The position numbers were made by a program, and so were the translations under genes. 14,032 bases of DNA from a virus. Location of the stretch: UHGV virus genome UHGV-0332040; one strand, 5' to 3'. Of this stretch, positions 1-14,032 are shown one piece after another (the stretch's first letter is position 1; every line of letters starts with the position of its first letter). A model generated the notes under the pieces. That model made no database searches. It was not told the DNA's origin and was given only the letters and a program-made list of their open reading frames with translations.

Positions 1-1
1 A

Positions 2-415
2 TTAGTGCGCACTCATACGCGCCATGTTCAACACCTTCCGCACAGAGGTTTCAGACACGCCAACCTTACTTGCAATGTAACGATTCTTCTGGCCTTTTGC
101 AGAGCGCTCGATAATGTCAGCGCGTACTGCCTCAGTGATCACCTTGCGGGGTCTGGCTCGATTCTTCTCGTGCCGTTCACGTTCGCGCATCCGCTCGGCC
201 ATCTTCGGCGGCAGCACAGGGGAAAGCCCACGGCTAACGCCAGAGGTGCGGGTGTCGGACGTGGCAGCTCGGGCAACGATATAAACCACTTCGTCTGGAT
301 TGAAAACGTGCTGCACACGCTCAGGGTAAATGTGGTCGCATCTACCCAGCGGCAAGGCGAAATCCGGGCGCACGTCAGCGACACGCTCCACGGCATGGAA
401 ATTACAGGTACTCAT
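2..415 (-). CDS. HTH-domain DNA-binding protein, C-terminus runs off the window (partial)
   Basis: ORF with ATG at 415 and GAGG 8 nt upstream; no stop before the window edge. Translation contains an HTH-like stretch (IIERSAKGQKNRYIASKVGVSETSVRKVL). Function not assignable from sequence alone. Confidence 0.5.
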   Translation of the reverse strand: MSTCNFHAVERVADVRPDFALPLGRCDHIYPERVQHVFNPDEVVYIVARAATSDTRTSGVSRGLSPVLPPKMAERMRERERHEKNRARPRKVITEAVRADIIERSAKGQKNRYIASKVGVSETSVRKVLNMARMSAH

Positions 416-554
416 TAGGAACCTCGGTTAATTAAAAACAGGCTTTTAGATGCCGCGCAGAATGCAGCTTGCGGGGACTCATGCGCTTAGATTGGTGTGG
501 TAGTACCGGGTTGGAGCGCACTCAGTCTTGCAGGGCGCATTCCACCGTTGGGCG

Positions 555-1241
555 TTAGCGACCAGCACGTTTGCCAGCGGAGCGCTGCGCAACCAGAGCG
601 CGGTATTGAATGTCGTACTGGCGATGGCCGGGGCCATACCCTGATTGCTGCGCCCACTGCGAAAGCTGATCATACGCTGCAATAAACTCAGCATGAGACA
701 TACCAACAGGTTGCGAGGCAGGCTGGCCGTATGGGTTCCCCTGTGATGGGACATAACCAGTCGCAGTGCCTGCGGCCATACGCTCTTGCAGATAATGAAC
801 CGCCCGCTGCATCTGCGCAGGGTCGCCAGACATAACCATCCGTTCAAGGGTTGATTGCGTCCCGGCGTCGAGCGTGCCAGCGTACTGCAACATCGCGTCA
901 ACTGTACCCTGCCCTAGCTGGCTTTCGACAGACTGGTGAAACTGCCCCATCAGCCCATGAAGTTCAGGAGTCAACTCAACAGTAGTGCCATCCTGTAATT
1001 GCAGTGTGTCGCCCACTTGTGCAGCAACATCAATCTGCTGGTCTTGCTGGTTGGCAAAGTTACTTTCGCTCCAGCTTTGATTAATGTTCGCTGGCTGCGT
1101 TTTCAGGAAATCAGCATCAGGTGTTGTCTGGTCGAATCGGCTAGCGCCGTTGTCAGCACCTACAGGTGCGGCCATGTACGGCGATTGCTGCGGCGCAGTA
1201 TCAGCGCCCGAAAGATATGGATTAACATTCTGGTCAGCCAT
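555..1241 (-). CDS. Hypothetical protein, Q/G/A-rich, 228 aa
   Basis: ATG at 1241 preceded by AGAGG SD inside the upstream gene; 2-nt gap to the upstream stop. Low-complexity Gln-rich composition; no recognisable catalytic motif. Confidence 0.55.
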   Translation of the reverse strand: MADQNVNPYLSGADTAPQQSPYMAAPVGADNGASRFDQTTPDADFLKTQPANINQSWSESNFANQQDQQIDVAAQVGDTLQLQDGTTVELTPELHGLMGQFHQSVESQLGQGTVDAMLQYAGTLDAGTQSTLERMVMSGDPAQMQRAVHYLQERMAAGTATGYVPSQGNPYGQPASQPVGMSHAEFIAAYDQLSQWAQQSGYGPGHRQYDIQYRALVAQRSAGKRAGR

Positions 1242-1243
1242 GA

Positions 1244-1483
1244 TTATGCAACCTCTTGTGATGTAACTCGGCGATGTGCCAGTTCAAGTAAAAGCATGTG
1301 TGCGTGTACGCAGCGTGGGGGAATCATCTTCTGACCGTGGTACGCCTTGCAGAGATCTTGTCTGTCAATTTGATACACACGAGCCAGATCGATTTGGCGT
1401 AGATTCAAGGCATCAGCAATGAATTTCAGTTGTTGCCCGCACTCCACCGCGCGGCGCGGCTCCATTAAAATGATGGTGCTCAT
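1244..1483 (-). CDS. Hypothetical small protein (79 aa; start revised to internal ATG)
   Basis: The track ORF 1244..1525 overlaps the upstream gene. The internal ATG at 1483 (MSTIIL...) has a GAGGA SD about 8 nt upstream and sits just after the upstream stop at 1498. Confidence 0.5.
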   Translation of the reverse strand: MSTIILMEPRRAVECGQQLKFIADALNLRQIDLARVYQIDRQDLCKAYHGQKMIPPRCVHAHMLLLELAHRRVTSQEVA

Positions 1484-1497
1484 GAAATAATCCTCAG

Positions 1498-1731
1498 TTA
1501 GATAAGGCCATGACGACGCAACCAACGTCGCTCGCCAACGGAGCCACGCGGTCGCTGCCTTGGGTTCTGGTTTGGTGCTTGGCCGGGATCAGTTCGTCCT
1601 TCCCCGGACAGGTTCTGTGTCAGCACATCCCAGCCGCGTGATTCAAACGGGGCGTATCCCTCGCGCTGTTCGTCAAGGTTCACATAGAGATCAGGGTTAA
1701 CGGCAGGGTGCAGCGGTTCGTTCTCTGCCAT
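1498..1731 (-). CDS. Hypothetical protein, 77 aa
   Basis: ATG at 1731 shares one base with the TGA stop of the upstream gene (TGATG), suggesting translational coupling. The GTG at 1734 reported by the ORF track is less likely. Confidence 0.5.
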   Translation of the reverse strand: MAENEPLHPAVNPDLYVNLDEQREGYAPFESRGWDVLTQNLSGEGRTDPGQAPNQNPRQRPRGSVGERRWLRRHGLI

Positions 1732-2291
1732 CACTTAGCCCCGAATCGCGTGTTAACATCTTCCAAAATATCGGGGTAGCTCCAGCGGTTACGCATCAGG
1801 CGCAGGACATGAGCAACAGCCTCAACAGAGATCCCAAGCTCTCCAGCGATCTCGGTTTGTTTCCAGCCGAAGCGCTCCAGCTTGTGCATCTGATCGAGGT
1901 CGGCGCTCAACAGGCGGCGCATCGTCTGAGGTTTCTCAGGCTTCGCTTTAACAGCTTTCGGCATCGGGTGGGTGTGGGCGTTGCTAAAGCGGGAATGTGC
2001 GATAGCCAGCACAGTCTCAGGGCGAATCAGCATATCGCGGGCAATCATAAACTCTGTATCGCGGTGCAGCTTGCCGGGCTTATAGCGGCTGCGGATGGCG
2101 TTGTACTCCGCCAGAGTGATATCAGCATCGTCTTTCCAATTTTCGGCCAAGTCATCGACATAGACGCCACGGATTACAGCATCAATATCGGTCAGGGTAT
2201 GACCTGTCTCCGCTGCAATCTCTTCATTGTTCTTTAGGTGCTTATGAGCCAGCGTGTTAATGCGCTGGATATCGGTAATGCTCAAAGTCAT
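1731..2291 (-). CDS. HTH protein with C-terminal sigma-70 region-4-like motif (regulator or DNA-binding packaging/replication accessory)
   Basis: 186-aa ORF; C-terminal WKQTEIAGELGISVEAVAHVLRLMRNRW resembles region-4/LuxR-type HTH. The start overlaps the upstream stop (ATGA). Confidence 0.6.
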   Translation of the reverse strand: MTLSITDIQRINTLAHKHLKNNEEIAAETGHTLTDIDAVIRGVYVDDLAENWKDDADITLAEYNAIRSRYKPGKLHRDTEFMIARDMLIRPETVLAIAHSRFSNAHTHPMPKAVKAKPEKPQTMRRLLSADLDQMHKLERFGWKQTEIAGELGISVEAVAHVLRLMRNRWSYPDILEDVNTRFGAK

Positions 2292-2464
2292 ACATTAAAC
2301 TCCGAATCAAAATTGATCTGGTCAGTAACCAGCGAATGAATCAGCGCAAGGCTGGATGCGGTATGTGTGCCCGACTTGCGGGCGTTGTCGTACATGAAGC
2401 GGGCTACACGTTGATATTTCTCCGGCAGCGTGGCGAACCATTGCCGGAACTGTTCGGGGGTCAT
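2288..2464 (-). CDS. Small hypothetical protein, 58 aa (not in supplied ORF track)
   Basis: Hand translation of the minus strand from ATG at 2464: MTPEQFRQWFATLPEKYQRVARFMYDNARKSGTHTASSLALIHSLVTDQINFDSEFNV. It fills the otherwise empty gap 2292-2460 and has ATGA overlaps with both neighbours. Confidence 0.4.
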   Translation of the reverse strand: MTPEQFRQWFATLPEKYQRVARFMYDNARKSGTHTASSLALIHSLVTDQINFDSEFNV

Positions 2465-2670
2465 TGGTCGTCATCCTCCGGGAACACGTTGTTAAAGGTT
2501 GTATCAGGCGAGTCGGCGGCGTTCTGCTTGAGGAAGTTCACGCAGGATGACAACTCGGCAGCAGCCATGCGTGACTCTCCCGCCTCGTCCTCCTTAAGCC
2601 TGCGCGTCAACGCACCCAGCAGCAGGGTTTTTAGTTCCCATGCTCCGGCTTCAAATTCAGATTTCGTCAT
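2461..2670 (-). CDS. Hypothetical small acidic protein, 69 aa
   Basis: ORF in an operon with ATGA overlaps at both ends (2667-2670 and 2461-2464). Confidence 0.5.
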   Translation of the reverse strand: MTKSEFEAGAWELKTLLLGALTRRLKEDEAGESRMAAAELSSCVNFLKQNAADSPDTTFNNVFPEDDDQ

Positions 2671-3098
2671 TGGTGGTTATCTCCAGTTAGTCCCATTGCA
2701 CGCAAGTGTTGAATGACCTCGGCATGTACTGGTTTTGGTAAAAACAGGCGACGCTGCACGGATTGAAGTATCTCGTCGCGCGTCTTGTCGGCAGGGTGAA
2801 CAGTCCCATTAAAGACCTCACGAGCCATGCGATAGGTCGGCCAAAGGCGAGCGCCATCCTCCCTGCGACGGAATCTATTCAGCACAGCGGCCAGACACTC
2901 CCACGGCTCACAGTTATTGAGCAGGCAATACCGCTGTAGCGGTGTCGTTGCCCGGCGCATGATGGCTTCACGATTAAGGGTCTGAATATGACGTTCGGCC
3001 AGTCCGTCGAATGAATAGCCGTTCAAAGCAAAGGCGAGCTGCGCATTAAGCAGGGCGTCAGAACGCCCCGCACGATGCAGTGCGGTTTCATCAGGCAT
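2667..3098 (-). CDS. Hypothetical protein, 143 aa
   Basis: ORF on the same strand about 43 nt downstream of the helicase stop; ATGA overlap with the next gene. No recognisable motif. Confidence 0.55.
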   Translation of the reverse strand: MPDETALHRAGRSDALLNAQLAFALNGYSFDGLAERHIQTLNREAIMRRATTPLQRYCLLNNCEPWECLAAVLNRFRRREDGARLWPTYRMAREVFNGTVHPADKTRDEILQSVQRRLFLPKPVHAEVIQHLRAMGLTGDNHQ

Positions 3099-3141
3099 AA
3101 GGATTCTCCAGAAAGGAATTTAAACAGGCGAGCTGGTCAGC

Positions 3142-5031
3142 TCAGAGGAAGCGGGAGATGTAACCCCAATTGCAGTTTTCAGGGCGGTACAACGCTGCCA
3201 GCTCATCAGGTACACCGGACGGCACCGGGGCAGAGTCGGCGTCATAGGTGATGGGGTCGCCATACAGAGCCAACGATGACCACAGCAGAAAAGCACGGGC
3301 AGGTTGACCGTCACGCCCGGCACGTCCGATCATCTGAACTAAATCGGGCAGGTCTTCGGGAACATAAGTGACAATTACGTTACGCACGCCAGAGATATCA
3401 GCCCCCAGCCCGAAGGCTTTAGTAGCAATCAGAACCGCGCCGGGCGTGCTGGCAAACCACGCAGCGTTAGCGTGACGCTGGTCGCGGCTCAGTCGCTCAA
3501 CGTCAGAATGGTAAGGCCGGGCGCGGTCTCCCAGTTCGTTGAGATACGCATACAGCATCTTGATACTGTCCACCATCACCAGCGTCTTCTCATCCAGCGG
3601 GAGGGCATCGACCAGACCAACGGCAGCCCGGCGCGTAGTTGCGCACTGCTGAACAGGAATAAGCTGGATGTTTTCACGGGCAGCACTGGCGCGGTAGGTG
3701 AGGAACTCGCCACGACAGCCAAGCTCTTTCATCAAGCCAGACTCATCACCTTTTCGCAGGGTCGCAGTAAACGCGCACCGCTGAGCATCCGGGAAGGCAT
3801 TTTTCAGGGTGTGTTTCATTGCAGGGAAAGCGTCCCGGAACTCCCATTCATCAACGGTATGAACCTCGTCAATGATAAATCTGTCCACACCAGCGGCCAT
3901 CAGCGCAGCCAGCACCTGATTGCCCGGCACCAGATGCTCAGGTGAAACTACGGCAACGTGGAAAGCGCCAGCAGCCAACCCCGCAAGCTGTTGCGCATTG
4001 CGTCGCCTCGGCAGCTTGTCGCCAAAGGCAACAGCGTGAACGCCAGTTTCTAGCAACTGCTGTAACACCTGCTGCTTGATGGTGTTTGTAGGCACAACAA
4101 TAACGGTCAGACCGTCATCAGAATCAGATTCAAATTGCAGGGCATAGGTGAATGCAGCCGTCTTTCCGTACCCGGTTGGCAGTACGGCCAATACATCGCG
4201 GTCACGGGCAAATACGGCGGCAGCTACGTCCTGCTGGCCGGGTCTCCAGTCTCTGCCATCTAGCGGTGGTAACGGTACGAATGCCGGGCGGTCGCATTGC
4301 TCCAGCTCGCGGAACCTGTACGGCGCGGTAACCAGCGGCGGGATGGACGGCGGCAGGCCAGCACCCCCAACGTCACAATGCAGATTCAGCGTATTGAATT
4401 TATCATCCGTGGGTTTCAGCTCACCGCACCACAACTGACGGAAAGCCGGGCAGTCACCCAGTCGCGTAAAGTCAGCATGGCGCATAGCTTCCAGCTTGCT
4501 CATGCCGCGACTGATACGACGCACGATCTTCTCATCGCAAATCAGAAACTCACGGCAGGCTTTGAGGAAGGCATTCTGCCCGGTTGTCGCTTCCGGGATG
4601 GAGTGCTCGCGCGGTTTAAGCGCAGCGTCATCAACGCGAACGCCGGGGAAATCTGGCGGCAGCGGCTCGGCGTACCGGGCAGGCTTTTTGTTTAGCCACA
4701 TCTCCAGCTCAGCGCGGCGGCAGTGGATTGCATCGCCCGGCTGGATAATCTGGCGCAACCCGGCATCAGCGCGGCGGGAATGTCGCTTGCGGCCAATTCC
4801 ATTCGCCTCTTTCCATTCACGGAACGACATAACTGAACCATCTGCATTGTAGAAATACTGCCCGGAAACGGTGTTAAGCGCTGCCTTCACTGGTCGCTGT
4901 TTAACAGGGCATAACTTGGAATGAGGTATAACGATCTTATCCGCAACCAGTTGCTGAGCATCCGCAGGCTCGGTGTTCAGCGGTTCGGCGTCAGCGGCCA
5001 GCGTAAGCAAGCGGTTTAAATTGGTTGGCAT
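3142..5031 (-). CDS. RecQ-like superfamily-2 DNA helicase with an N-terminal domain of about 260 aa of unknown function
   Basis: 629-aa ORF. Helicase motifs read directly from the translation: motif I LPTGYGKT, motif Ia-like IVVPTNTIKQQV, motif II IIDEVHTVDEWEFRDAF (DExH with the RecQ-type W..FR signature), motif III FTAT, motif VI QMIGRAGRDG. GGAG SD upstream of ATG 5031. Confidence 0.85.
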   Translation of the reverse strand: MPTNLNRLLTLAADAEPLNTEPADAQQLVADKIVIPHSKLCPVKQRPVKAALNTVSGQYFYNADGSVMSFREWKEANGIGRKRHSRRADAGLRQIIQPGDAIHCRRAELEMWLNKKPARYAEPLPPDFPGVRVDDAALKPREHSIPEATTGQNAFLKACREFLICDEKIVRRISRGMSKLEAMRHADFTRLGDCPAFRQLWCGELKPTDDKFNTLNLHCDVGGAGLPPSIPPLVTAPYRFRELEQCDRPAFVPLPPLDGRDWRPGQQDVAAAVFARDRDVLAVLPTGYGKTAAFTYALQFESDSDDGLTVIVVPTNTIKQQVLQQLLETGVHAVAFGDKLPRRRNAQQLAGLAAGAFHVAVVSPEHLVPGNQVLAALMAAGVDRFIIDEVHTVDEWEFRDAFPAMKHTLKNAFPDAQRCAFTATLRKGDESGLMKELGCRGEFLTYRASAARENIQLIPVQQCATTRRAAVGLVDALPLDEKTLVMVDSIKMLYAYLNELGDRARPYHSDVERLSRDQRHANAAWFASTPGAVLIATKAFGLGADISGVRNVIVTYVPEDLPDLVQMIGRAGRDGQPARAFLLWSSLALYGDPITYDADSAPVPSGVPDELAALYRPENCNWGYISRFL

Positions 5032-5052
5032 GGTGCAAACTCCAGAGAAGGA

Positions 5053-5490
5053 TTAAATACTACGCGCCCAAGCTAAATCTTCGGGTGTCCGACTTTCGAT
5101 TAACGCTAACTGCCAGCGTAAGTAATCCTCATGTTCTTTGGTGTATCGGGGAATACCTATAGGATTTTTCACAGCGTCCGGGTTAGTCCTCGCGACTTCC
5201 CTGCAATCTCGGTCGAAAGCCCAGCGGGCAACTTCCACCGATTCGTAATCCGTAAATCGGTACGGCCTTGTGCGGGAACGTACACGCCAGACAACTTGCC
5301 CTAATTCGTGGATGTATATGCCGCAAAGTTCATCCGGGCTTGGGTGATACAATGGCTCCCCATAATTCTGGCGCATGAACTTCACAAACTTTTGATTGCG
5401 GCGGGCACGCCGTGCTTTTTCGCGTCGCTCCTCGGCTTCATACTCTTTTTGAATGGCGGCACGGTCTACCGGGATAAGTGTTTTGCTCAT
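5053..5490 (-). CDS. Hypothetical protein, 145 aa (first gene of the operon; start revised)
   Basis: The track ORF 5053..5667 has no SD at its first ATG. The internal ATG at 5490 (MSKTLIPV...) has GGAGA 7 nt upstream. Arg/Lys-rich N-terminal region. Confidence 0.55.
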   Translation of the reverse strand: MSKTLIPVDRAAIQKEYEAEERREKARRARRNQKFVKFMRQNYGEPLYHPSPDELCGIYIHELGQVVWRVRSRTRPYRFTDYESVEVARWAFDRDCREVARTNPDAVKNPIGIPRYTKEHEDYLRWQLALIESRTPEDLAWARSI

Positions 5491-5557
5491 ACAGTGATCT
5501 CCAGAAATTAATGTGAGTTTGGAACGGGGCGCAGGACGGAAGCGCCGGGAGTGTGGC

Positions 5558-5756
5558 AGTCTGTCCTCCTTAGTAGTTACCATCATTGCAATGGCGTCGG
5601 AGTTCTGTCTCTCTTTAGTAGTGATCTTCATCCAGTAATTTGGATTAAATGCAGACACGGCGGGCATTGCAGCGAGATGGAGAGTAGGCGGGCTTGCGGT
5701 TTCAGTCTGCCTTAGTACAAGTTTCTAGTGGTCGGTAGCCTTTCCCTTATTAGTAG
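5558..5756. repeat. Iteron/operator-like direct repeats with TTAGTA(G/C) core in the operon leader
   Basis: Plus-strand copies: AGTCTGTCCTCCTTAGTAG (5558-5576), GTTCTGTCTCTCTTTAGTAG (5602-5621), AGTCTGCCTTAGTAC (5704-5718), plus a core-only TTAGTAG at 5750-5756. All lie upstream of the operon start at 5490. Confidence 0.5.
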
Positions 5757-6024
5757 CTCTCATTTATCCGGGGCTTGTCTTCCCACACAGTAGCCGTCTT
5801 CTAAAGCAACCACACCACAATCCACTACTGGCAAGGAGTTAGCAGACACGGTGATGTAGGCTACTCAAGTGTGGATTTGTAGGCGTTTTATAGTATCTGT
5901 CCTTCTTATTAGACACCTTTAAATTTCATTAATAAATACAGTTAGTTAAACGGTTATCTTTATTACTTATAAATTTCACAGATCAATAAATTAAAATTGA
6001 TCGGAATTATCAGCTTTAATTTTC

Positions 6025-6053
6025 TTGACAGCTATTTGTATAATGGTTTTAAG
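6025..6053 (+). promoter_or_regulatory. Sigma-70 promoter-like hexamers in an AT-rich island (TTGACA 6025-6030; perfect TATAAT 6039-6044)
   Basis: Both consensus hexamers are present but only 8 bp apart, so they cannot belong to one promoter. TTGACA could pair with TTTAAG (6048-6053, 17-bp spacer), or TATAAT with a weak -35 upstream. No plus-strand ORF follows. Confidence 0.25.
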
Positions 6054-6222
6054 AAGTTGTATCGGAGTGAGCGACTGGCAGTGAGCGTAGCGAACGATAA
6101 GCCAGTCGGCGAAGAACGAAGAGTATGAGATGACTTGTCATCGAATACGATGAGTGATTGAGCGGTACGAACGGAGATACGCTGTATAACAGTTAGAACA
6201 GTTAACAAGCTGATTAATGCTT

Positions 6223-6387
6223 TCAATGATTATCTGAATCAGTGTTATCAATTCCGAAATAACTCTTCCTCTCCTGTATTGATTCAATCATTTCTTTCAT
6301 TTCAAGAATCACTACCAGCTCAGCTAATAACCGTCTCAGTTCAACATTTGAATCATTAGCACGACACTTATTTTCTGAGTATTCCAT
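6223..6387 (-). CDS. Small hypothetical protein, 54 aa, in AT-rich island (not in supplied ORF track)
   Basis: ATG at 6387 with GGGAG SD 8 nt upstream; translation MEYSENKCRANDSNVELRRLLAELVVILEMKEMIESIQERKSYFGIDNTDSDNH; AT-rich codons unlike the neighbouring genes. Confidence 0.3.
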   Translation of the reverse strand: MEYSENKCRANDSNVELRRLLAELVVILEMKEMIESIQERKSYFGIDNTDSDNH

Positions 6388-6479
6388 ACGGTCAACTCCC
6401 TACGGTATAAGTCCATTCCAATCCGTTCACAGATTACATTGCTGAATGATCATCAGACAAGTGGCAGTCATCATCACCA

Positions 6480-6800
6480 AGTTAGAGTCGTCTCGCTACA
6501 TATCCCCGCCGGATTGCCAGCGCGGCTAACACGGTTGTGAGGAGCGCCGAGCATCACAGCGGACGCAGGCCGATGAACGAGCCGTAGGTGAGTGAAAGCG
6601 GACTCGCGGACGCGAGAAGCGCAGCAGCAGGCGGCGACTGATAAACGAGCCAGACAGGTGAGTGCAAGCAGGCGTAAGCACTGCACCGTTGAGAGGTGTG
6701 GAGACGGCGGAACGTCTCCGCGTTAGGGAGGTGGATTTGGGGAGGATGTGCAAGGCACACCTCGCTCCACCCACGGGGTGTCGGTGGGTAGGGGTATAAC
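6480..6800 (+). other. T-depleted, purine-rich non-coding block with tandem repeats and GC hairpins (candidate ncRNA or protein-binding array)
   Basis: Stops in all plus frames; the minus frames are open only because that strand is A-poor. Hand count: 9 T in 6541-6660. Tandem repeat pair 6572-6599 and 6640-6669; palindrome CTCGCG-GA-CGCGAG 6603-6616; hairpins at 6700-6719 and 6769-6789. Confidence 0.35.
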
Positions 6801-6910
6801 GCTAATTGGTTAAGTGTACACATGTACGCTGAAATCATTAAAAGCCTATAGAAACAGCATGTAACCCAGCACCACGACATAACCAATTATCGTTGAACCC
6901 CCTCCCCGGC

Positions 6911-7246
6911 CCCACCCGGAATTTTTCAGTGATGAATCACTTCACAATCTGATCTCGATGTTCATCGTCTGGCACGGCTAAAGCCCCGCCATCTCTTCAC
7001 ATCGAGAGCCGCAAGTAATACGAAAATACATTATAAATCATAGCATTACGACATCGCGCATAACATAACGCTCTGAAATTAATACGAAAGCTGTAGGTCA
7101 TCCATCACCCACAGCCCAGTAACGGCCAGTGCTGGCACCTCATTTGGCTGTAGGTCAGCCCGACCCCACCGCCCAATAACCCCACCCGGCAGCAATGGCA
7201 CGGCACCAGACGCAGCGTAACGATCTCTGAGTTGATAAATCACTTA
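6911..7246. repeat. Cluster of paired short repeats in the C+A-rich non-coding block 3' of the serine recombinase gene
   Basis: CCCACCCGG at 6911-6919 and 7181-7189; TAATACGAAA at 7016-7025 and 7080-7089; GCTGTAGGTCA at 7090-7100 and 7147-7157; palindrome-containing TGATGAATCACTT at 6930-6942 and TGATAAATCACTT at 7234-7246. Confidence 0.45.
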
Positions 7247-7329
7247 GGGCAGCGTAACCCACACCCAACGGCTCACATCCTCGCAGAGAGGCTCACAGAT
7301 CACCTCGTGACATTTCACAGCATCAACCC

Positions 7330-7953
7330 TCAGACGCTGGCAGCCAGCTCACGCTTAATGCGGTAGAACGTTGCCCGGCTTATCCCGGCAGCTTTCATGA
7401 TGCGCTCCGGTTTCACACCCTGCGCCAGCATTTCCCTGACGGTCTCGCGAGCGGCGGCATCCTTCTGACTCCCACGATAAAGCCCCTCAGCTTTGGCTCG
7501 TTCAATGCCCTGCCGCTGGCGCATCAGTCGCGTCTCGTAGTCCACGCGGGCCATTGTAGCGAGGATATCGATCAGCATTGCGTTAACGGCTCTGAGGATG
7601 CCGCTGGTTAGCTCTGACGCGGTTTCGTTCAGCAACTGCCACGAGGTTGGCAGGTCAACGGCGACGATCACCAGCCCCTTATCCTGAATCCTCTGTTTCA
7701 GTGTCGCCCATTCCTTTTGTGTCAGGCGGCTTAGCCTGTCTATGCTTTCGACAAGTAGAACGTCGCCAGCCTCCGCCTCACCCAGCAGGCGCATCAGTTC
7801 AGGACGCTCCAGCCGCGCACCGCTGGCGTTCTCGATGTATCGCGCAGCAATAGACCAACCACGCTCATTAGCGAAATCCTCCAGCGCAGGAACGGCACGG
7901 TCGGCGTGTTGCTCGGCGGTGGATGCCCTGGCATACAGACGAACGTTATTCAT
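7330..7953 (-). CDS. Small serine recombinase (resolvase/invertase family)
   Basis: 207-aa ORF with GGAGGG SD. N-terminal catalytic motif YARASTAEQ (Ser11), LLVESIDRLSRL, and a C-terminal HTH (ISRATFYRIKRELA), typical of resolvase/Hin-Gin-type enzymes. Confidence 0.85.
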   Translation of the reverse strand: MNNVRLYARASTAEQHADRAVPALEDFANERGWSIAARYIENASGARLERPELMRLLGEAEAGDVLLVESIDRLSRLTQKEWATLKQRIQDKGLVIVAVDLPTSWQLLNETASELTSGILRAVNAMLIDILATMARVDYETRLMRQRQGIERAKAEGLYRGSQKDAAARETVREMLAQGVKPERIMKAAGISRATFYRIKRELAASV

Positions 7954-8536
7954 GATTCACCCTCCAAATCTCAGTGAAGTATCACATCCCGACATGAAGG
8001 AGATCACACTTAAAAACCGTGGTCAATAGGGTATAAAATAAATTTGATTGCGACAGCTTAGGCACATCACAATGCGGTATACCCGGATGAGACAGAGACA
8101 GCCAGCGGCAGACTGGCACCGAGTCACAGCAAAACCCCGGCGCACCCAGCGAACGCAGCGCAAAGCGCACACAGGAGATCAGCACGGCACCGCCACGATC
8201 TCGAAATCACAAAGGCGTTGAATCAAACATTGCAACCGCAGCAGTAACCAGCCAGCATTTCGCGCCTGCAACGGTTGTCTCGGATGAGCAAAATCTTAGG
8301 GTTTTCTCAGCGACCCCTGACGCGCGGGCACGCACATGCGCACGGGGGCGCGGGCGAGCTATACAGTTGAGGGAGGGGCAACCATAAGCGTGCAATTTTT
8401 CAAGCCGGGACTTTTAACAGTGGGATTGTGAGGCTATTTTGCATTCAGAGAGTGAGGCTGTAGGGTAGCTCCCCTTGAACCAGATAACGCTAAGCTAACC
8501 ATTTTCCCCACTGCTTAAGCCACTTTGCGTTGACGT

Positions 8537-9037
8537 TCAGCACCCCACAGCAGCATTATCCGGCATCAGAAACGGAATCAGTTTAGTATCACCATGCACA
8601 TATAACGGGTGCATAGGCTCTCCCGTTGCGTTAATTTTAAAACACTTCGTATCTACAGGAAGGAACGCCCGTACTACGGCAGAGCGTTTCAGGTGCCGCC
8701 CTTCATTCCCCCACGCAGCAACAACGATACCAGCACCAGCTATCAATTCTGCCAGATACTTATCATTATCCGCCCCGACAGGCTCCGGGAATCTCATCAT
8801 CTCAAAGCGGTCAGTACACACATACGCGAACAGGTTCGCGATACGTACCCCCCCGAAGCCCCAGCTCTGCGCAAATGAGATACAACGTTTCAGTGTGGGG
8901 TCGTCAAGCTCTGCGTCCGCATACGATGGATTCAAACCGATGAAAAGAGCATAAGGCTTTGCAGCGTCCCACGTTCTGGAAATAGCGTAACGGTACTTCC
9001 CGCACACAGAGAAGATCGCGTCTTTGTTCACATCCAT
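8537..9037 (-). CDS. DUF1643-like protein, 166 aa
   Basis: Translation carries the motif block I recall as characteristic of DUF1643 (CGKYRY...FIGLNPSYADAELDDPTLKRCISFAQSWGFGG). Assignment is from memory of the family signature, not from a search. GAGGG SD upstream of ATG 9037. Confidence 0.55.
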   Translation of the reverse strand: MDVNKDAIFSVCGKYRYAISRTWDAAKPYALFIGLNPSYADAELDDPTLKRCISFAQSWGFGGVRIANLFAYVCTDRFEMMRFPEPVGADNDKYLAELIAGAGIVVAAWGNEGRHLKRSAVVRAFLPVDTKCFKINATGEPMHPLYVHGDTKLIPFLMPDNAAVGC

Positions 9038-9180: not shown

Positions 9181-9671
9181 GCCAAGCCCCACAAGATTAG
9201 GATTAATCTTAGGCTACAAAATGATCAATACAAATGCAACGGATTGTTATTTATTACAGATACAAGAATTAAGGGGGAAATAATCAGGAGGGGATGCCCC
9301 GGACTGCCAGCACAGAACCGGGGCGAATGCGGACGGAGCCACCCATCAGCCGAATAACCATAGCCTATTTTCTGGCAATAGCAAGCCATAAGCGCCGTGT
9401 TGGGTACACTCAGCAGCAGCGCCATCGGCGCATCATCATCTCAATCTTGTACAATCATCCGTTCACTTATCGAGTACCGTTCATTTATGGCACGGTGAAC
9501 ACCACGGCAGAGCCAGCCCCTTTCCCGGACTGGTTAGGCTTCCCAACATCAGCTCGTTTATCCGTGGCGTGTCATCACGACAGGCGGGAACCGGACACCG
9601 CGCTAAGTGCGGAACAGATGAATGTTTCAGGGAATCATGCCGGGTGAACGGCTTTCAGTTCATGTTGGACT

Positions 9672-9920
9672 ATCGCGGTATGACCAGTGGAACGACCGCC
9701 AGCGCTTTGCTAAACTCCCTGTTCACCGTTCAACAAATCGCGGCAACTATCAGGGTAAATAGCGGTACTTTGGTCACATCACCTTAGAGCTAACTCATTG
9801 AGTTATAAGGCTTTTAATGGGCTGGAGCGGGCGAAGGGAATCGAACCCTCATAGCTAACCCATTGAATTGTGAACCAAAATAAGTAATCGCGGTACTTAT
9901 CCCGGTAGTTGGTAGCGGTA
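9672..9920. repeat. Candidate integrase arm-type repeats (ATCGCGGTA / GCGGTACTT family) on both sides of the att core
   Basis: ATCGCGGTA 9672-9680; ATCGCGGCA 9737-9745; GCGGTACTT 9762-9770; ATCGCGGTACTT 9887-9898; GCGGTA 9915-9920. Three copies lie left of the core and two lie between the core and the int start. Confidence 0.4.
9823..9850 (-). other. att core: 28-nt 3' end of a tRNA-Gly gene (T-arm, acceptor 3' strand, U discriminator, CCA); not a complete tRNA
   Basis: Minus strand reads GAGGGTTCGATTCCCTTCGCCCGCTCCA, which matches my recollection of the 3' end of enterobacterial tRNA-Gly(CCC) glyU. No D-arm or anticodon arm is recognisable 5' of it, so it is a fragment. Confidence 0.65.
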
Positions 9921-9938
9921 GATTACAAGGTAATTACC

Positions 9939-11165
9939 ATGCCAATCAAGAAGACTTCTTATCTTTATGCAAACAAAGATGGGATATTCATCTTTCAAAT
10001 CTTTATCCCGGTGTACATGCGCCACTTATGGCACGGGCGGCGCTCACTCAAGAAATCGACAGGCACGCGGGACATCATGCAAGCTCGCATATTCCGTGAC
10101 CAATACTTATTAGAGTTCCGAAAGCTCCAGCTCATGATGAAACCGGATAACCCTATAAACCGGATTCATTCTGCTATTTCAGATCTTCACTTACTGGCGG
10201 GAATATCCAGCGACATTACCGCGCCCGTAACTACTCCAGCAGAACGAGGGAAACCAGCGTCGCCAAAATTGACAGATGTCAGTAAAGAATATGCAGAGCA
10301 ATACAAAGATCGGCGCTCTTATTCCACATTGAGTAAATCCGCTCGCGCTGTATCAGCATTCACTAAATCAACTAAGCGCCCAACAATTACAATAAACGGA
10401 ATCGGGCGGCGGCTCGTCTCTGACTTTCTGAAAGCGAACCAAGATAAGTTTTCCCGGCAGACGATGCAAAACTGGTTAACTTGCTTAGGTACGCTGTACG
10501 ACTTCGCCCGGCGTAAATATGACAATATCGCCCCTGATAATCCCTTTCACGGCCACAATCTGGAAGCCCGTCAGACAAACGAAAGTTACCAGCCGTTTGA
10601 ACCGCACCAGCTACAGACATTAACAAAAAAGGCAGGTGACGAAATAAGGGATGTAATAATAATCGGGCTGTATTCCGGGATGCGTCTTGATGAAATAGCC
10701 AGCATTAAACGGGATGAGGTTGTCACCATCGACGGCGTGCGGTGTTTCTATGTCAGTAAATCAAAAACAAAGGCGGGTATAAGGCATGTCCCTGTACACT
10801 CGCTGTTATTTGACATTGTTGATAAATACCTCGCGCAAAACAGCGGGGAGTACCTGCTCCCCCAATCCAACAAAATTAAACGCGCGGATGGTAAACGTGG
10901 GCCGTGGTATTCTCAGACATTTACCCGCTTACGTCGCCGGGTACTACCAACAGCCACAGAGCGCCAGTGTTTCCACTCCCTGCGTGGTCACTTCATCACC
11001 TGCTTAGACCGGGCAGGTGTACCAGAACAGCGCATAGGAGCTATTACCGGGCATACAGAGAAAAAGGCAAAGACGGAAGCATTTAAAACGTACAGCCAAG
11101 GGGCTGGGATGAAAGAACTATCTGAATACGTAGAGCTGGTAAGTTATCCAGAACTTGAATCATAA
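9939..11165 (+). CDS. int: Tyrosine recombinase / phage integrase
   Basis: 408 aa from ATG 9939 (AAGG SD 9 nt upstream); the track start at 9909 is a TTG. C-terminal catalytic region has GMRLDE (Arg), HSLRGHFIT (H-x-x-R...H) and a C-terminal Tyr in FKTYSQG. Lies 89 nt from the tRNA-derived core. Confidence 0.85.
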   Translation: MPIKKTSYLYANKDGIFIFQIFIPVYMRHLWHGRRSLKKSTGTRDIMQARIFRDQYLLEFRKLQLMMKPDNPINRIHSAISDLHLLAGISSDITAPVTTPAERGKPASPKLTDVSKEYAEQYKDRRSYSTLSKSARAVSAFTKSTKRPTITINGIGRRLVSDFLKANQDKFSRQTMQNWLTCLGTLYDFARRKYDNIAPDNPFHGHNLEARQTNESYQPFEPHQLQTLTKKAGDEIRDVIIIGLYSGMRLDEIASIKRDEVVTIDGVRCFYVSKSKTKAGIRHVPVHSLLFDIVDKYLAQNSGEYLLPQSNKIKRADGKRGPWYSQTFTRLRRRVLPTATERQCFHSLRGHFITCLDRAGVPEQRIGAITGHTEKKAKTEAFKTYSQGAGMKELSEYVELVSYPELES

Positions 11166-11167
11166 TT

Positions 11168-11596
11168 TCAGGCAGGGTAAATAATCCCCAGCCCGCGATA
11201 CTGGCGGCGGTATTCTCTGACCAGAGCATCCGCCGTCGCCCTCGGCAGCTTCGCCATATGCCCGGTACGATAGCCACCCTCGGCAGAATTCGCTGCACGA
11301 TGTACAACAGCCCGCACGCGCCCGGTTCTGTGGTCGTGGTCGAGGGTCGTGCTGCTGAACGCAACAGCCCGCCCGGTAACGGCACACCGTCGATACTGAT
11401 AATTCCACAGAAAGCAACGCACCGCAGCCACGTCAGCACGGCGCAACTCCAGTCGCCCTGAACCATTCAACAGGAGGCGATACACATCGTCGAATGCAGC
11501 AGCGTTTCTAACGCGCTCAGCCAGCGGCATATTGCCAAGGAACTCCAGATAATCCCGCATTGCTTTTCTTAAAAGTTGGTCTGTCCGTGTAACCAT
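11168..11596 (-). CDS. Endonuclease VII-like (recombination endonuclease VII family, HNH-type) protein
   Basis: 142-aa ORF with GGAGA SD; motif CAVTGR...LDHDHRTGRVRAVVHRAAN resembles the DHDH-x-TG-x-VRG core of T4 EndoVII-family proteins. Confidence 0.55.
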   Translation of the reverse strand: MVTRTDQLLRKAMRDYLEFLGNMPLAERVRNAAAFDDVYRLLLNGSGRLELRRADVAAVRCFLWNYQYRRCAVTGRAVAFSSTTLDHDHRTGRVRAVVHRAANSAEGGYRTGHMAKLPRATADALVREYRRQYRGLGIIYPA

Positions 11597-11868
11597 GATT
11601 CAAAGTCTCCATTGTCAGACACAGCCCGCTTGCAGGCTTCGTATTCTTCGCGCTGGCGTTGGCATACCAGAGCATAAAGCTCATCAGCCACCGCATTTAC
11701 GCGCCTATCACTGATACCGTTGCGACGCATCTGCCCCAGCAGCTTACGAAATTCAGCCTCAAGCTCAGGCTCTCCTGTATCCATTACCCACTGTTTCAAG
11801 TCAGCGAGTGCGCCAGTCATTGGCGGCGGCTCGATGTACCGCCACCTTAATTTAATCGTCAAAGCCAT
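11569..11868 (-). CDS. Hypothetical protein, 99 aa (start revised to second ATG)
   Basis: AGAGGA SD directly abuts the first ATG at 11874, so the second ATG at 11868, 6 nt further, is the likelier start. Overlaps both neighbours on the same strand. Confidence 0.5.
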   Translation of the reverse strand: MALTIKLRWRYIEPPPMTGALADLKQWVMDTGEPELEAEFRKLLGQMRRNGISDRRVNAVADELYALVCQRQREEYEACKRAVSDNGDFESWLHGQTNF

Positions 11869-12277
11869 AAGCATTCCTCTTTATATCGTTTGCTCTCGCT
11901 TCACTGGCTTGTTTAAGCGTCATTCCTTCGATAGCTATATCCAGCAGTTCCTTTTGCTTACCAGCCAATCGCAAGGCGCTGTCTCTCCAGCAAAGCAGAA
12001 AGAAGATTGTCAGCACCTGTTTACTCAATCCATCCAGAAGATCGCCAAGTCCTTGATCCAGCAGACAGGCACGCCATGCAGCAGCGTGCTGCGTCATAGC
12101 ACCGACTATCGGGATAGGTGCGCCAAGCATCGTCGCAAGCTGACTCATAACACTATTAGCATCGCCCGGATGCAGCCGGGGAATAGTCATGCGGCCAGCC
12201 TGCGCCAACAGCTCGGCGTACCTCTGGCGACGTGGGTCATCACATGCCAGCGGTTTAATTGGCTTTTCATCAGCCAT
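11852..12277 (-). CDS. Hypothetical protein, 141 aa
   Basis: ATG at 12277 with GGAGG SD 9 nt upstream, immediately after the TAA of the HNH gene. Confidence 0.55.
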   Translation of the reverse strand: MADEKPIKPLACDDPRRQRYAELLAQAGRMTIPRLHPGDANSVMSQLATMLGAPIPIVGAMTQHAAAWRACLLDQGLGDLLDGLSKQVLTIFFLLCWRDSALRLAGKQKELLDIAIEGMTLKQASEARANDIKRNAYGFDD

Positions 12278-12295
12278 ATATGGAACCTCCGAGGA

Positions 12296-12823
12296 TTAGG
12301 CAGCCTGCAACAAATCGGCTGGCGTTGAGGGATGGTATCTGGCTTTAGCTTTTAGATAGGCAGCACGCGCCGCCGCTTCGGTTGTGAACAAGCCAAGGTG
12401 ATGGCGTACACCATTAACGCGAATGTAAGCCTCCCATTTACCAGAACAAGAATGACGGCTATATCCCTTCGCTTTGCGGTAGTTGTGCTGATTCTCCTGC
12501 GGTGTAACAGCGCGGAGGTTGCCCGGTCGATTATCGGCACGTACAGCGTTAATGTGGTCGATTTGCAGACCGTCAGGGATACCACCATTAGCAATGATGA
12601 AGGCCACGCGATGCGCATAAATCGAGTGCGTCCTGCCGTCGATGCGGACAGACACGCGCCGATACCCGGCGCTGTCCGTTGCGGTGTCAGCCAGTTCCCC
12701 GGCCTCAGCATAAATCCGCTTGTTGATTCCAATTCGGTCTACTGCATGGAACAGGCGGCCAGTCTCCGCATCGTATCGAAATAAAGAGCGTAGCAGCTCA
12801 GGGGCGTAAGCATCATTAACCAT
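12296..12823 (-). CDS. HNH homing-type endonuclease with AP2-like DNA-binding domain
   Basis: 175-aa ORF with GGAGGGG SD. HNH_3-type block GYRRVSVRIDGRTHSIYAHRVAFIIANGGIPDGLQIDHINAVRADNRPGNLRAVTPQENQHN, and an AP2-like C-terminal block SGKWEAYIRVNGVRHHLGLFTTEAAARAAYLKAKARYH. Confidence 0.8.
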   Translation of the reverse strand: MVNDAYAPELLRSLFRYDAETGRLFHAVDRIGINKRIYAEAGELADTATDSAGYRRVSVRIDGRTHSIYAHRVAFIIANGGIPDGLQIDHINAVRADNRPGNLRAVTPQENQHNYRKAKGYSRHSCSGKWEAYIRVNGVRHHLGLFTTEAAARAAYLKAKARYHPSTPADLLQAA

Positions 12824-12839
12824 GACTCAGCCCCTCCAG

Positions 12840-13835
12840 TTACACAGCTTGTCGGAAATTGATAACGCAGTCAGGGCGGCGCAGTCCAACATTGAACAGG
12901 CGATATGAGTCCATCACCATCGTCATTTCGCGCTCATCATCCCACTGGCGATTGATAACGCTCTGCGCTTCGACTGTCACAAGTACAGACGCAGGCCGGA
13001 ACAGCGTCGCCCGCGTCAGCGCTTCCTCTGAGGTAACGTCATAATCAGCGCCCAGTTCATGCCCGGTAATAGCTTCCTGCGGGTAACTGTTCAGCTCAAT
13101 GACTCGTACCCCAGCGACATAGCCAACTCGACGCCATGCGTAATCGTTGCCACTATCCCGGCTGTAACGGACGTTCATCAGCTTCTTATGTTCCATCAGG
13201 ATGCTGAACCAAGCCGGGTCGATAAGCAGTACCAGCTCGGCCACCGGAATATCTTTCTCAGTGAGAAAGCGATTAGCAGCCGCTTTTACGACGTGAGCCA
13301 ATTCGTTTGCGGCGTCCTCTTCGCTCCCCGCTGTCAGGTCGAGCGATACAACGTTATCCGTTAGTGGGTTAAACGTTGGTTGCAGTGTCGGCGGCGGTAC
13401 AAAGTCAGTCGCTTTGATTAGCTGGATGGTGTGCGCTTCGTCGTAGAATTTAGCGTGAGCAGTACCCATATTGCGGCTCAGCTCTGCGCGAAAGGTGGGC
13501 GCTGTCCAGTCGTCCTGATAGTCAATCGGAATGCGGATATAGCTCAGCGTATCCACAGAGATAATCAGCTTATCCGACTTAACAGCGGTAGGCTCCAGCG
13601 ATTGCCCTGCGGTTCTGCCCTTCACCTCCAGATCACCACTCAGGCGATCAATGCGGTATTGGTTGCTGGCTTTCAGCGGCCTGTATGTAGACAGCCCCTC
13701 TGCCAGAAATACGGATTTGGACTCTAAACGGGTCTGGACATCCCGGTCATAAGCCTCGATGTGAATATCATTGTCGGATTCCACCCCGCCATAATGTGGG
13801 CGAAACAGATCGGGACTGTACGAAGTATCAGTCAT
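12840..13835 (-). CDS. Major capsid protein, T7 gp10-like (HK97-fold family); start revised
   Basis: 331 aa from ATG 13835 (AGGAG SD 8 nt upstream). Several blocks align by eye with my recollection of T7 gp10A: KLIISVDTLSYIRIPIDYQD vs KVITIDGLLTADVLIYDIED, LLIDPAWFSIL vs FYCDPDSYSAIL, C-terminal YRLFNVGLRRPDCVINF vs YAMGHGGLRPEAAGAVVF. Not search-verified. Confidence 0.55.
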   Translation of the reverse strand: MTDTSYSPDLFRPHYGGVESDNDIHIEAYDRDVQTRLESKSVFLAEGLSTYRPLKASNQYRIDRLSGDLEVKGRTAGQSLEPTAVKSDKLIISVDTLSYIRIPIDYQDDWTAPTFRAELSRNMGTAHAKFYDEAHTIQLIKATDFVPPPTLQPTFNPLTDNVVSLDLTAGSEEDAANELAHVVKAAANRFLTEKDIPVAELVLLIDPAWFSILMEHKKLMNVRYSRDSGNDYAWRRVGYVAGVRVIELNSYPQEAITGHELGADYDVTSEEALTRATLFRPASVLVTVEAQSVINRQWDDEREMTMVMDSYRLFNVGLRRPDCVINFRQAV

Positions 13836-14032
13836 AAACAAAACTCCTACGTAGGTTGATGAAGCCCGCGCCATCGTCATGGCACAGACGTGCGGAATCC
13901 TCCCGCCGAGGCAGGATTCAGAACGGTATCGATTAAAGGGATGAGGTGCCCCGAAATGGGCGTTTTGAGGCCAGAGCTGGCGCGGTTCTCAGAGGTTAGT
14001 GCGCGTGAAGTAAGGCGAACGTATTACCTTGC

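Follow-up and report, generated by a model that had tools for sequence, protein, structure and literature searches.

The window analyzed here is the whole 14,032-nt stretch of UHGV virus genome UHGV-0332040, and it is a complete circular permutation of an integrative element, contiguous across the junction of positions 14032 and 1. On its minus strand a helicase (positions 3142 to 5031) is encoded by the first large gene in a long operon whose genes all point the same way. We found that this protein joins a RecQ-type motor to an N-terminal region of about 260 residues that resembles no known domain, and that its gene is part of the core of the element family. The element looks like a satellite of T7-like phages, and the helicase may be the one that initiates its replication or unwinds its DNA.

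A RecQ-type motor without the accessory domains of RecQ

The helicase gene starts with an ATG codon preceded, about 10 nt upstream, by GGAG. Its parts are as follows (aa, amino acids; SF2, superfamily 2; pI, isoelectric point; pLDDT, predicted local distance difference test).

3142..5031, minus strand: helicase coding sequence, 629 aa plus stop; RefSeq annotates the same open reading frame (ORF) in NZ_CP154887 as a DEAD/DEAH box helicase
4672..4962, minus strand: module A, aa 24-120, basic, with a predicted beta-hairpin and helices and without known homolog
4417..4671, minus strand: module B, aa 121-205, neutral, helical
4252..4416, minus strand: proline-rich linker, aa 206-260, predicted to be disordered (pLDDT <50; 10 Pro in 56 residues)
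3277..4251, minus strand: RecQ-type SF2 helicase core, aa 261-585, with motifs 0, I, Ia, II (DEVH), the aromatic loop, and III to VI
3145..3276, minus strand: acidic C-terminal tail, aa 586-629, pI 4.1, in place of the RecQ Zn/RQC/HRDC domains

Pfam assigned residues 264-426 to the DEAD family (E = 1.5e-19) and residues 480-575 to Helicase_C (E = 4.6e-14). All of the SF2 motifs, 0 and I to VI, were found, including the DExH box and the aromatic-rich loop: WRPGQ at 262-266 (RecQ motif 0), LPTGYGKT at 284-291, DEVH at 388-391, WEFRD at 396-400 (the RecQ aromatic loop), FTATL at 421-425, and QMIGRAGRDG at 566-575. In an alignment of 24 family members these motifs are unchanged or almost so. The closest PDB sequences were RecQ and WRN (E of about 1e-23), which aligned with residues 260-585 only, and the fold of the core is RecQ-like, its closest fold matches being members of the RecQ family. 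An earlier note, made from the letters of this DNA without database searches, had described a RecQ-like core with a complete set of SF2 motifs, and the Pfam matches, motif positions and PDB matches to RecQ and WRN bear this out.

The similarity to RecQ ends with the motor. The protein missed the curated RecQ cutoffs, with 131.7 bits versus 219.8 for TIGR00614 (recQ_fam) and 135.8 versus 640.2 for TIGR01389 (recQ). PF16124, PF09382, and PF00570 (the RecQ zinc-binding, RQC, and HRDC domains), which true RecQ matches possess, were unmatched in the Pfam scan. Past motif VI there are just 44 residues with a single cysteine (C620); this acidic tail ends in ELAxxYRxENxNW, which is conserved in the family. 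Judged by its sequence, only the motor of the protein resembles RecQ, and the protein is no canonical RecQ. It shares motif 0, Walker A, DExH, the W..FR loop, and GRAGRDG with the RecQ family (E. coli RecQ, human RECQ1, WRN, and BLM), but it is at most about 30% identical to these proteins, has an unrelated 260-aa N-terminus, and is encoded by a mobile-element gene rather than a chromosomal repair gene. A motor of the predicted RecQ type would be expected to have 3'-5' polarity.

A HMMER profile of the full-length helicase family (627 positions), within which there are two 50%-identity clusters, kept the helicase columns, and its best 150 matches were generic RecQ cores. The profile search also yielded a distant relative, P0089, with a motor that is 34% identical.

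Motors of the RecQ family typically act in recombination and repair. This protein, too, might process branched DNA, D-loops, or R-loops, like T4 UvsW or a RecG/RecQ-like enzyme, and not initiate replication at an origin. The RQC winged helix, with which canonical RecQ reads branched DNA, is absent from the protein, and this counts against such a role.

Two N-terminal modules without known homologs

Searched as single sequences, residues 1-262 and their halves gave no match in Pfam, PHROGs, or the PDB sequences even at E ≤ 10. Nor did family-derived profiles of modules A and B match anything in these three collections at E ≤ 10, and a Foldseek search of BFVD with a model of the N-terminus found nothing at E ≤ 0.001. 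The AlphaFold2 (AF2) model, a small beta-hairpin plus helices, had a low mean pLDDT of 58.8, and the negative fold searches are weak evidence for that reason. The earlier note could recognize no motif in these ~260 residues; the hidden Markov model and Foldseek searches that it proposed likewise matched the region to no known domain.

The same note had considered a primase-like N-terminus. We found no archaeo-eukaryotic primase (AEP), Toprim, or zinc-finger signature in the region, nor is a catalytic acidic motif or a zinc motif conserved there. Of its cysteines, only C165 and C246 are invariant in the family alignment. With the modeled hairpin and helices, these results lend no support to a primase.

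Module A has a net charge of +9 and a pI of about 10 (the family median net charge is +7). Module B occurs in a second form: free-standing proteins of 83-85 aa, homologous to residues 124-204 (BLASTP E = 7e-11 and 2e-9), are encoded directly upstream of the helicase in two loci of a 46%-identity subfamily (L006, 5364-5621; L007, 9741-9992). Such copies occur only in that subfamily, whose helicase also retains its own fused module B; in the subfamily of the window no free-standing copy was found. These homologs indicate that module B is an independent evolutionary unit, and its occurrence as a separate neighboring protein is as expected of an interaction module. When modules A and B were compared by hhalign with the N-terminus of P0089, the aligned stretches were colinear, at a probability of <2%. 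The N-terminal region looks functional, as it is kept family-wide, module A is strongly basic, and module B is also found free-standing.

The helicase is a core gene of its element family

The element family was found in 149 of 5426 complete E. coli genomes (~3%) and in other Enterobacterales, namely Enterobacter, Citrobacter, Cronobacter, Kosakonia, Kluyvera, Trabulsiella, and Rosenbergiella. All eight of the complete GTDB species-representative loci possess the same 15-gene core, which includes the helicase. The gene is also present in L001-L004, in L006-L008, which form the 46%-identical subfamily, and in L024, a very distant member. The 46%-identical helicases P0080 and P0081 belong to elements of this type. 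The exact helicase protein was present in 11 index blocks, the longest carrying contig being 10-20 kb, and relatives occur on contigs of 14.1-15.0 kb.

Synteny was constant among the members examined: resolvase, gap, helicase, small ORFs, structural genes. L024, which encodes P0089 with its unrecognizable N-terminus, has the order resolvase, gap, helicase, small ORFs, scaffold, HNH, endonuclease VII. At L024 14395-15690 the HNH gene comes immediately after the scaffold-like gene and a capsid gene is missing in between, so that capsid genes are not shared by all members of the wider family. The helicase is a universal core gene among the members examined and, in Pfam, PHROGs, and NCBIfam scans, the sole recognizable replication-type enzyme of the element.

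An endonuclease VII-like protein and a serine recombinase are also kept in every member. This favors a branch-processing helicase, which, together with the endonuclease VII and the resolvase, would produce and tidy up concatemers fit for packaging by a T7-type terminase; T7-like packaging does need concatemers. On the other hand, the gene heads the operon and adjoins a leader with repeats and an AT-rich tract, and no other candidate initiator was found in the element. We regard branch processing without a role in initiation as rather unlikely.

A different kind of gene adjoins the attachment (att) site. In the window this cargo is a DUF1643 gene (8537-9037), while relatives carry a TIR-domain or DUF3800 protein there (L004 14398-15537; L003 13634-14404). 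The region between resolvase and att site looks like a variable, possibly defense-related hotspot.

The earlier note had offered a helicase-based defense or anti-defense module as its alternative. According to this proposal the protein would be an effector like DpdF, PsyrT, or BrxH, directed against the helper or competing phages and unneeded for the element's own replication. DpdF (of Dpd 7-deazaguanine restriction) and PsyrT (the PsyrTA toxin) are likewise RecQ-like SF2 cores on mobile elements. The PADLOC model PDLC02858, labeled 'DpdF', matched residues 111-629 with 1053 bits, and other DpdF, PsyrT, and BrxHI models matched the core with E from 1e-11 to 1e-47. Satellites also often carry defense genes (PMC9122126).

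These matches have to be set against several others. The curated NCBIfam DpdF model (NF041063) gave 108.4 bits against a cutoff of 550. PDLC02858, with 504 positions, spans the satellite helicase family almost end to end, and we infer that sequences of this very family went into its construction. Its match starts at residue 111 (window 3142-4701), and M111 is not a conserved start, being Q in many homologs. PADLOC-type annotation will label the satellite helicases 'DpdF', which is misleading here. In the neighboring ORFs scanned with PADLOC, no Dpd cluster gene (dpdA-C, dpdD-K), no psyrA, and no brx gene was found; the PsyrT match (112 bits) covered the generic core only. Going by these scores and neighbors, the protein cannot meaningfully be called DpdF or PsyrT. 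Finally, the helicase gene is invariant core and not hotspot cargo, which lies near the att site. A defense role is thus disfavored and we consider it improbable; the gene probably encodes a replication or DNA-processing helicase rather than a defense protein.

Direct repeats in the operon leader

The earlier note had placed the gene behind an iteron-like leader, and the repeats are real.

5560..5920, minus strand (gene strand): five direct repeats, approximately CTAMTAAGRAGGACAGA, with the core TACTAAGG, in the operon leader
5920..6450: AT-rich stretch, GC ~0.40, directly upstream of the repeats; a candidate unwinding or regulatory region

The pattern CTAMTAAGRAGGACAGA had two exact matches compared to 0.06 expected. 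Across the family the number of copies per element ranges from 0 to 11. In the divergent subfamily, L006 has nine copies (4072-4412) and L007 eleven (8436-8841), spaced 32-41 bp apart in two blocks, with a unit of approximately ATTTRNNNNNNYAYACTAAGGNGRGTATRAC. As the repeats recur in regular arrays of the divergent subfamily, they are a family feature and not a product of chance. The core CATACTAAGGAG also occurs twice in L024 (8885-8960).

Every copy points down the operon strand, where no sigma-70-type promoter was found, and by eye the repeats resemble promoters of T3/SP6-type single-subunit RNA polymerases. They contain perfect Shine-Dalgarno cores, and T7-type origins are primed by transcripts of the phage RNA polymerase. 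These observations would suit an RNA or R-loop remodeling helicase that acts on the repeat-bearing leader transcript and controls expression, stability, or priming from transcripts made by the helper RNA polymerase. The motif was not found in the Bonnellvirus Lidtsur, however, nor as a repeated element or promoter in the phage collection, and its matches in viral contigs are ordinary ribosome-binding sites; repeats that serve as helper RNA polymerase promoters are to that extent unsupported. The helicase core is, moreover, RecQ-like and not like that of DEAD-box RNA helicases. An RNA-remodeling role seems very unlikely to us.

Many repeat copies can be read as mini-ORFs of five codons (MKITT*, MMVTT*, MRIHT*) whose TAA lies within the Shine-Dalgarno sequence TAAGGAGG. 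We rejected this reading, which was made by eye, because the mini-ORFs have no upstream Shine-Dalgarno sequence and the ATG is lost in the L006 and L007 arrays. The repeats may be iterons, helper-polymerase promoters, or an element of the leader RNA. An Rfam scan of the whole window gave no significant match.

Between the resolvase gene and the AT-rich leader, window 6500-7330 is GC-rich and has no credible ORF and no Rfam match. Within it lie two direct repeats of ~69 bp (6557-6583 / 6625-6651; 6586-6599 / 6656-6669) and a pair of 34-nt repeats (7090-7123 / 7147-7180). Parts of this GC-rich stretch are conserved in L002 and L003.

The element resembles a satellite of T7-like phages

The other features of the element are listed below (HTH, helix-turn-helix).

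7330..7953, minus strand: serine recombinase, resolvase type, upstream of the leader in all family members
5053..5490, minus strand: 145-aa ORF directly upstream of the helicase, present in some family members only, with no family match
2667..3098, minus strand: 143-aa conserved ORF 3' of the helicase
2461..2670, minus strand: 69-aa small-terminase-like protein (truncated), weak T7-type similarity (PF11123, E = 0.0026)
1731..2291, minus strand: 186-aa conserved protein with a C-terminal HTH
555..1241, minus strand: scaffolding-like protein (phrog_1018, E = 5e-6)
12840..13880, minus strand: major capsid protein, 56% identical to Bonnellvirus (Autographiviridae) capsids (phrog_267, E = 7e-70)
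12296..12823, minus strand: HNH_3 (plus weak AP2) endonuclease
11168..11596, minus strand: endonuclease VII-like protein (PF02945, E = 4.6e-6), weakly similar to Lidtsur
9909..11165, plus strand: tyrosine integrase
9822..9845: attP core, a 24-bp overlap present at either end of the element as integrated in NZ_CP154887

Window 1-8243 and 9822-14032 match adjoining parts of the element integrated in E. coli 5735 (NZ_CP154887), and the form sequenced in the window seems to have been an excised one, circular or concatemeric. In relatives the integration site is tRNA-Gly, tRNA-Thr, or a position beside hsdR. In E. coli 5735 the element (L001) is flanked on both sides by identical blocks of ~4 kb (L001 3837-7867 and 22850-26880), each encoding two hypothetical proteins besides a 544-aa integrase and a DUF4145 protein; the blocks point either to tandem islands at tRNA-Gly or to a duplication that arose in assembly. 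Near attP, a 240-bp stretch (window 9377-9615) without annotation is 85% identical to a segment of two 120-kb Klebsiella pneumoniae plasmids.

The operon runs from the resolvase gene through a mostly non-coding stretch of 1.8 kb to the 145-aa ORF and the helicase. There follow genes for proteins of 143, 69, 58, and 186 aa (the last with the HTH), two small ORFs, the scaffold-like gene, and genes for a 137-aa HTH protein, the capsid, and HNH_3, then two small ORFs and the endonuclease VII-like gene; the integrase is on the opposite strand. The coupling of the operon that the earlier note had pointed out was confirmed, the gaps downstream of the helicase being 43 nt and then three 4-nt overlaps. 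That note had asked whether the operon is conserved as the replication module of a known phage family. It is conserved, but in a satellite-like element and not in a known phage family.

The first-ATG form of the ORF upstream of the helicase would encode 204 aa and overlap two of the repeats; RefSeq and other gene callers give 145 aa. By eye this protein might pass for an AP2-like DNA binder. We discarded the idea, as the protein had no Pfam or PHROGs match and no similarity to the HNH_3 protein of L006.

The 69-aa protein is 47% identical to gp48 of Lidtsur over 45 aa (E = 1e-3). With 42.3 kb, the Lidtsur genome is about three times as long as the 14.0-kb element. In none of the element's ORFs scanned with Pfam, NCBIfam, and PHROGs did we detect a portal, large terminase, tail, DNA polymerase, or primase. 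The element thus has an integrase with att sites and an incomplete set of virion and replication genes, some of them homologous to those of the presumed helper. Because phage-type genes for capsid, scaffold, small terminase, and endonuclease VII occur without those for portal, large terminase, tail, polymerase, and primase, the element looks like a satellite of T7-like phages (Autographiviridae, Bonnellvirus-type), the helper being presumed. A description of this element family was not found in the searchable literature, which is not proof that none exists.

Like the capsid-encoding satellite islands, the element falls in a size range of 11-15 kb, bears an integrase, and encodes part of its own capsid machinery, and it has about one-third the length of the presumed helper genome, as P4 has of P2. 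Compared to the known satellite islands, its morphogenetic genes are Autographiviridae-like and comprise capsid and scaffold only; alpA, pri-rep, Sid/Psu/Delta, portal, protease, and large terminase were not detected; and its presumed replication gene encodes an SF2 helicase.

A possible replication helicase

A replication role is best supported because the helicase is a universal core gene and the sole replication-type enzyme of the element. To this extent the replication module proposed in the earlier note is partly supported; its primase-like N-terminus is not. As for the origin binding that it also suggested for the N-terminus, module A is basic, yet the repeat core outlasts the N-terminus in L024. 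We tentatively propose, on the strength of gene content and conservation, that the helicase may be the satellite's core replication-initiation or DNA-unwinding helicase and may recruit the helper replisome.

The steps could be as follows. After infection by the helper and excision of the element, the basic module A would tether the motor to satellite DNA, most likely at the AT-rich, repeat-bearing leader just upstream of the gene. The 3'-5' RecQ-type motor would then open the duplex, and module B, the acidic tail, or both would recruit the primase, DnaB-type helicase, and DNA polymerase of the helper, none of which is encoded by the satellite. The logic would be that of an initiator helicase such as herpesvirus UL9, or of a PriA-type loader.

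UL9 and PriA combine an SF2 motor with a dedicated DNA-targeting domain and prepare DNA for the loading of a separate replicative helicase and polymerase. The DNA-binding domain of UL9 is C-terminal, and PriA has a zinc-containing insertion. The satellite helicase lacks such an insertion and has no similarity to either protein that could be detected beyond the generic SF2 core, so that the analogy is functional only.

Among satellites, the position of the gene is that of P4 alpha, Pri-Rep of SaPI/PICI, and RepA of PLE: all of them count among the early core genes of integrative satellites, here next to direct repeats and an AT-rich tract, and like P4, SaPI, PICI, and PLE the element would otherwise depend on the helper replisome. 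P4 alpha, Pri-Rep, and PLE RepA are primase plus SF3-type helicases, or RepA_N initiators without a helicase. The satellite helicase differs in being SF2 and RecQ-like, without the hexameric core of the SF3/SF4 type, and no Pfam, NCBIfam, or PHROGs match to a primase domain (AEP, Toprim, zinc-binding) was found in it or elsewhere in the element. It plausibly works like an initiator of the Pri-Rep/P4-alpha type all the same.

Several points weigh against the proposed role. No DNA-binding fold was found for the N-terminus, the AF2 models being poor and the fold and sequence searches empty. Residues 65-115 had looked by eye like an AlpA/excisionase-type winged helix, but hhalign against an AlpA family alignment gave a probability of 14% and a different register, and we dropped this candidate. 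L024 retains the repeat core TACTAAGG(A)G / CCATACTAAGGAG alongside a helicase whose N-terminus is unrecognizable. This argues for a reader of the repeats that is a conserved factor other than the fast-evolving N-terminus; the helper RNA polymerase and the ribosome are candidates, the latter because TAAGGAGG is a perfect Shine-Dalgarno sequence. Moreover, L017 and L020 carry the helicase without repeats and L002 has one copy. Members without upstream repeats imply that a sequence-specific origin reader is not required, and this is also a point in favor of branch processing. Finally, no SF2 helicase of the RecQ type is known to initiate the replication of a bacterial mobile element, and the satellite initiators known so far are primase-SF3 fusions or RepA_N proteins.

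A narrower form of the proposal is that the helicase is a sequence- or structure-specific initiator of capsid-encoding satellites of virulent T7-like Enterobacterales phages, its orphan modules docking onto satellite DNA and the helper replisome. We hold this form to be doubtful.

The motor itself is of a known kind. What is new is its fusion to the N-terminal region, the free-standing paralog of one module, and its place as the sole replication-type gene of an apparent satellite of T7-like phages. If the proposed role as a replication helicase is correct, a 14-kb parasite without polymerase or primase would have an unusual way of being copied during a fast lytic T7-like infection. The partners of module B or of the acidic tail would then offer a way to the helper. 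Satellite replication factors would gain a new class, that of a RecQ-type motor with a targeting region of its own. The protein would also be the first initiator helicase of the SF2 RecQ type to be described from a bacterial mobile element, a functional parallel to UL9 of the herpesviruses.

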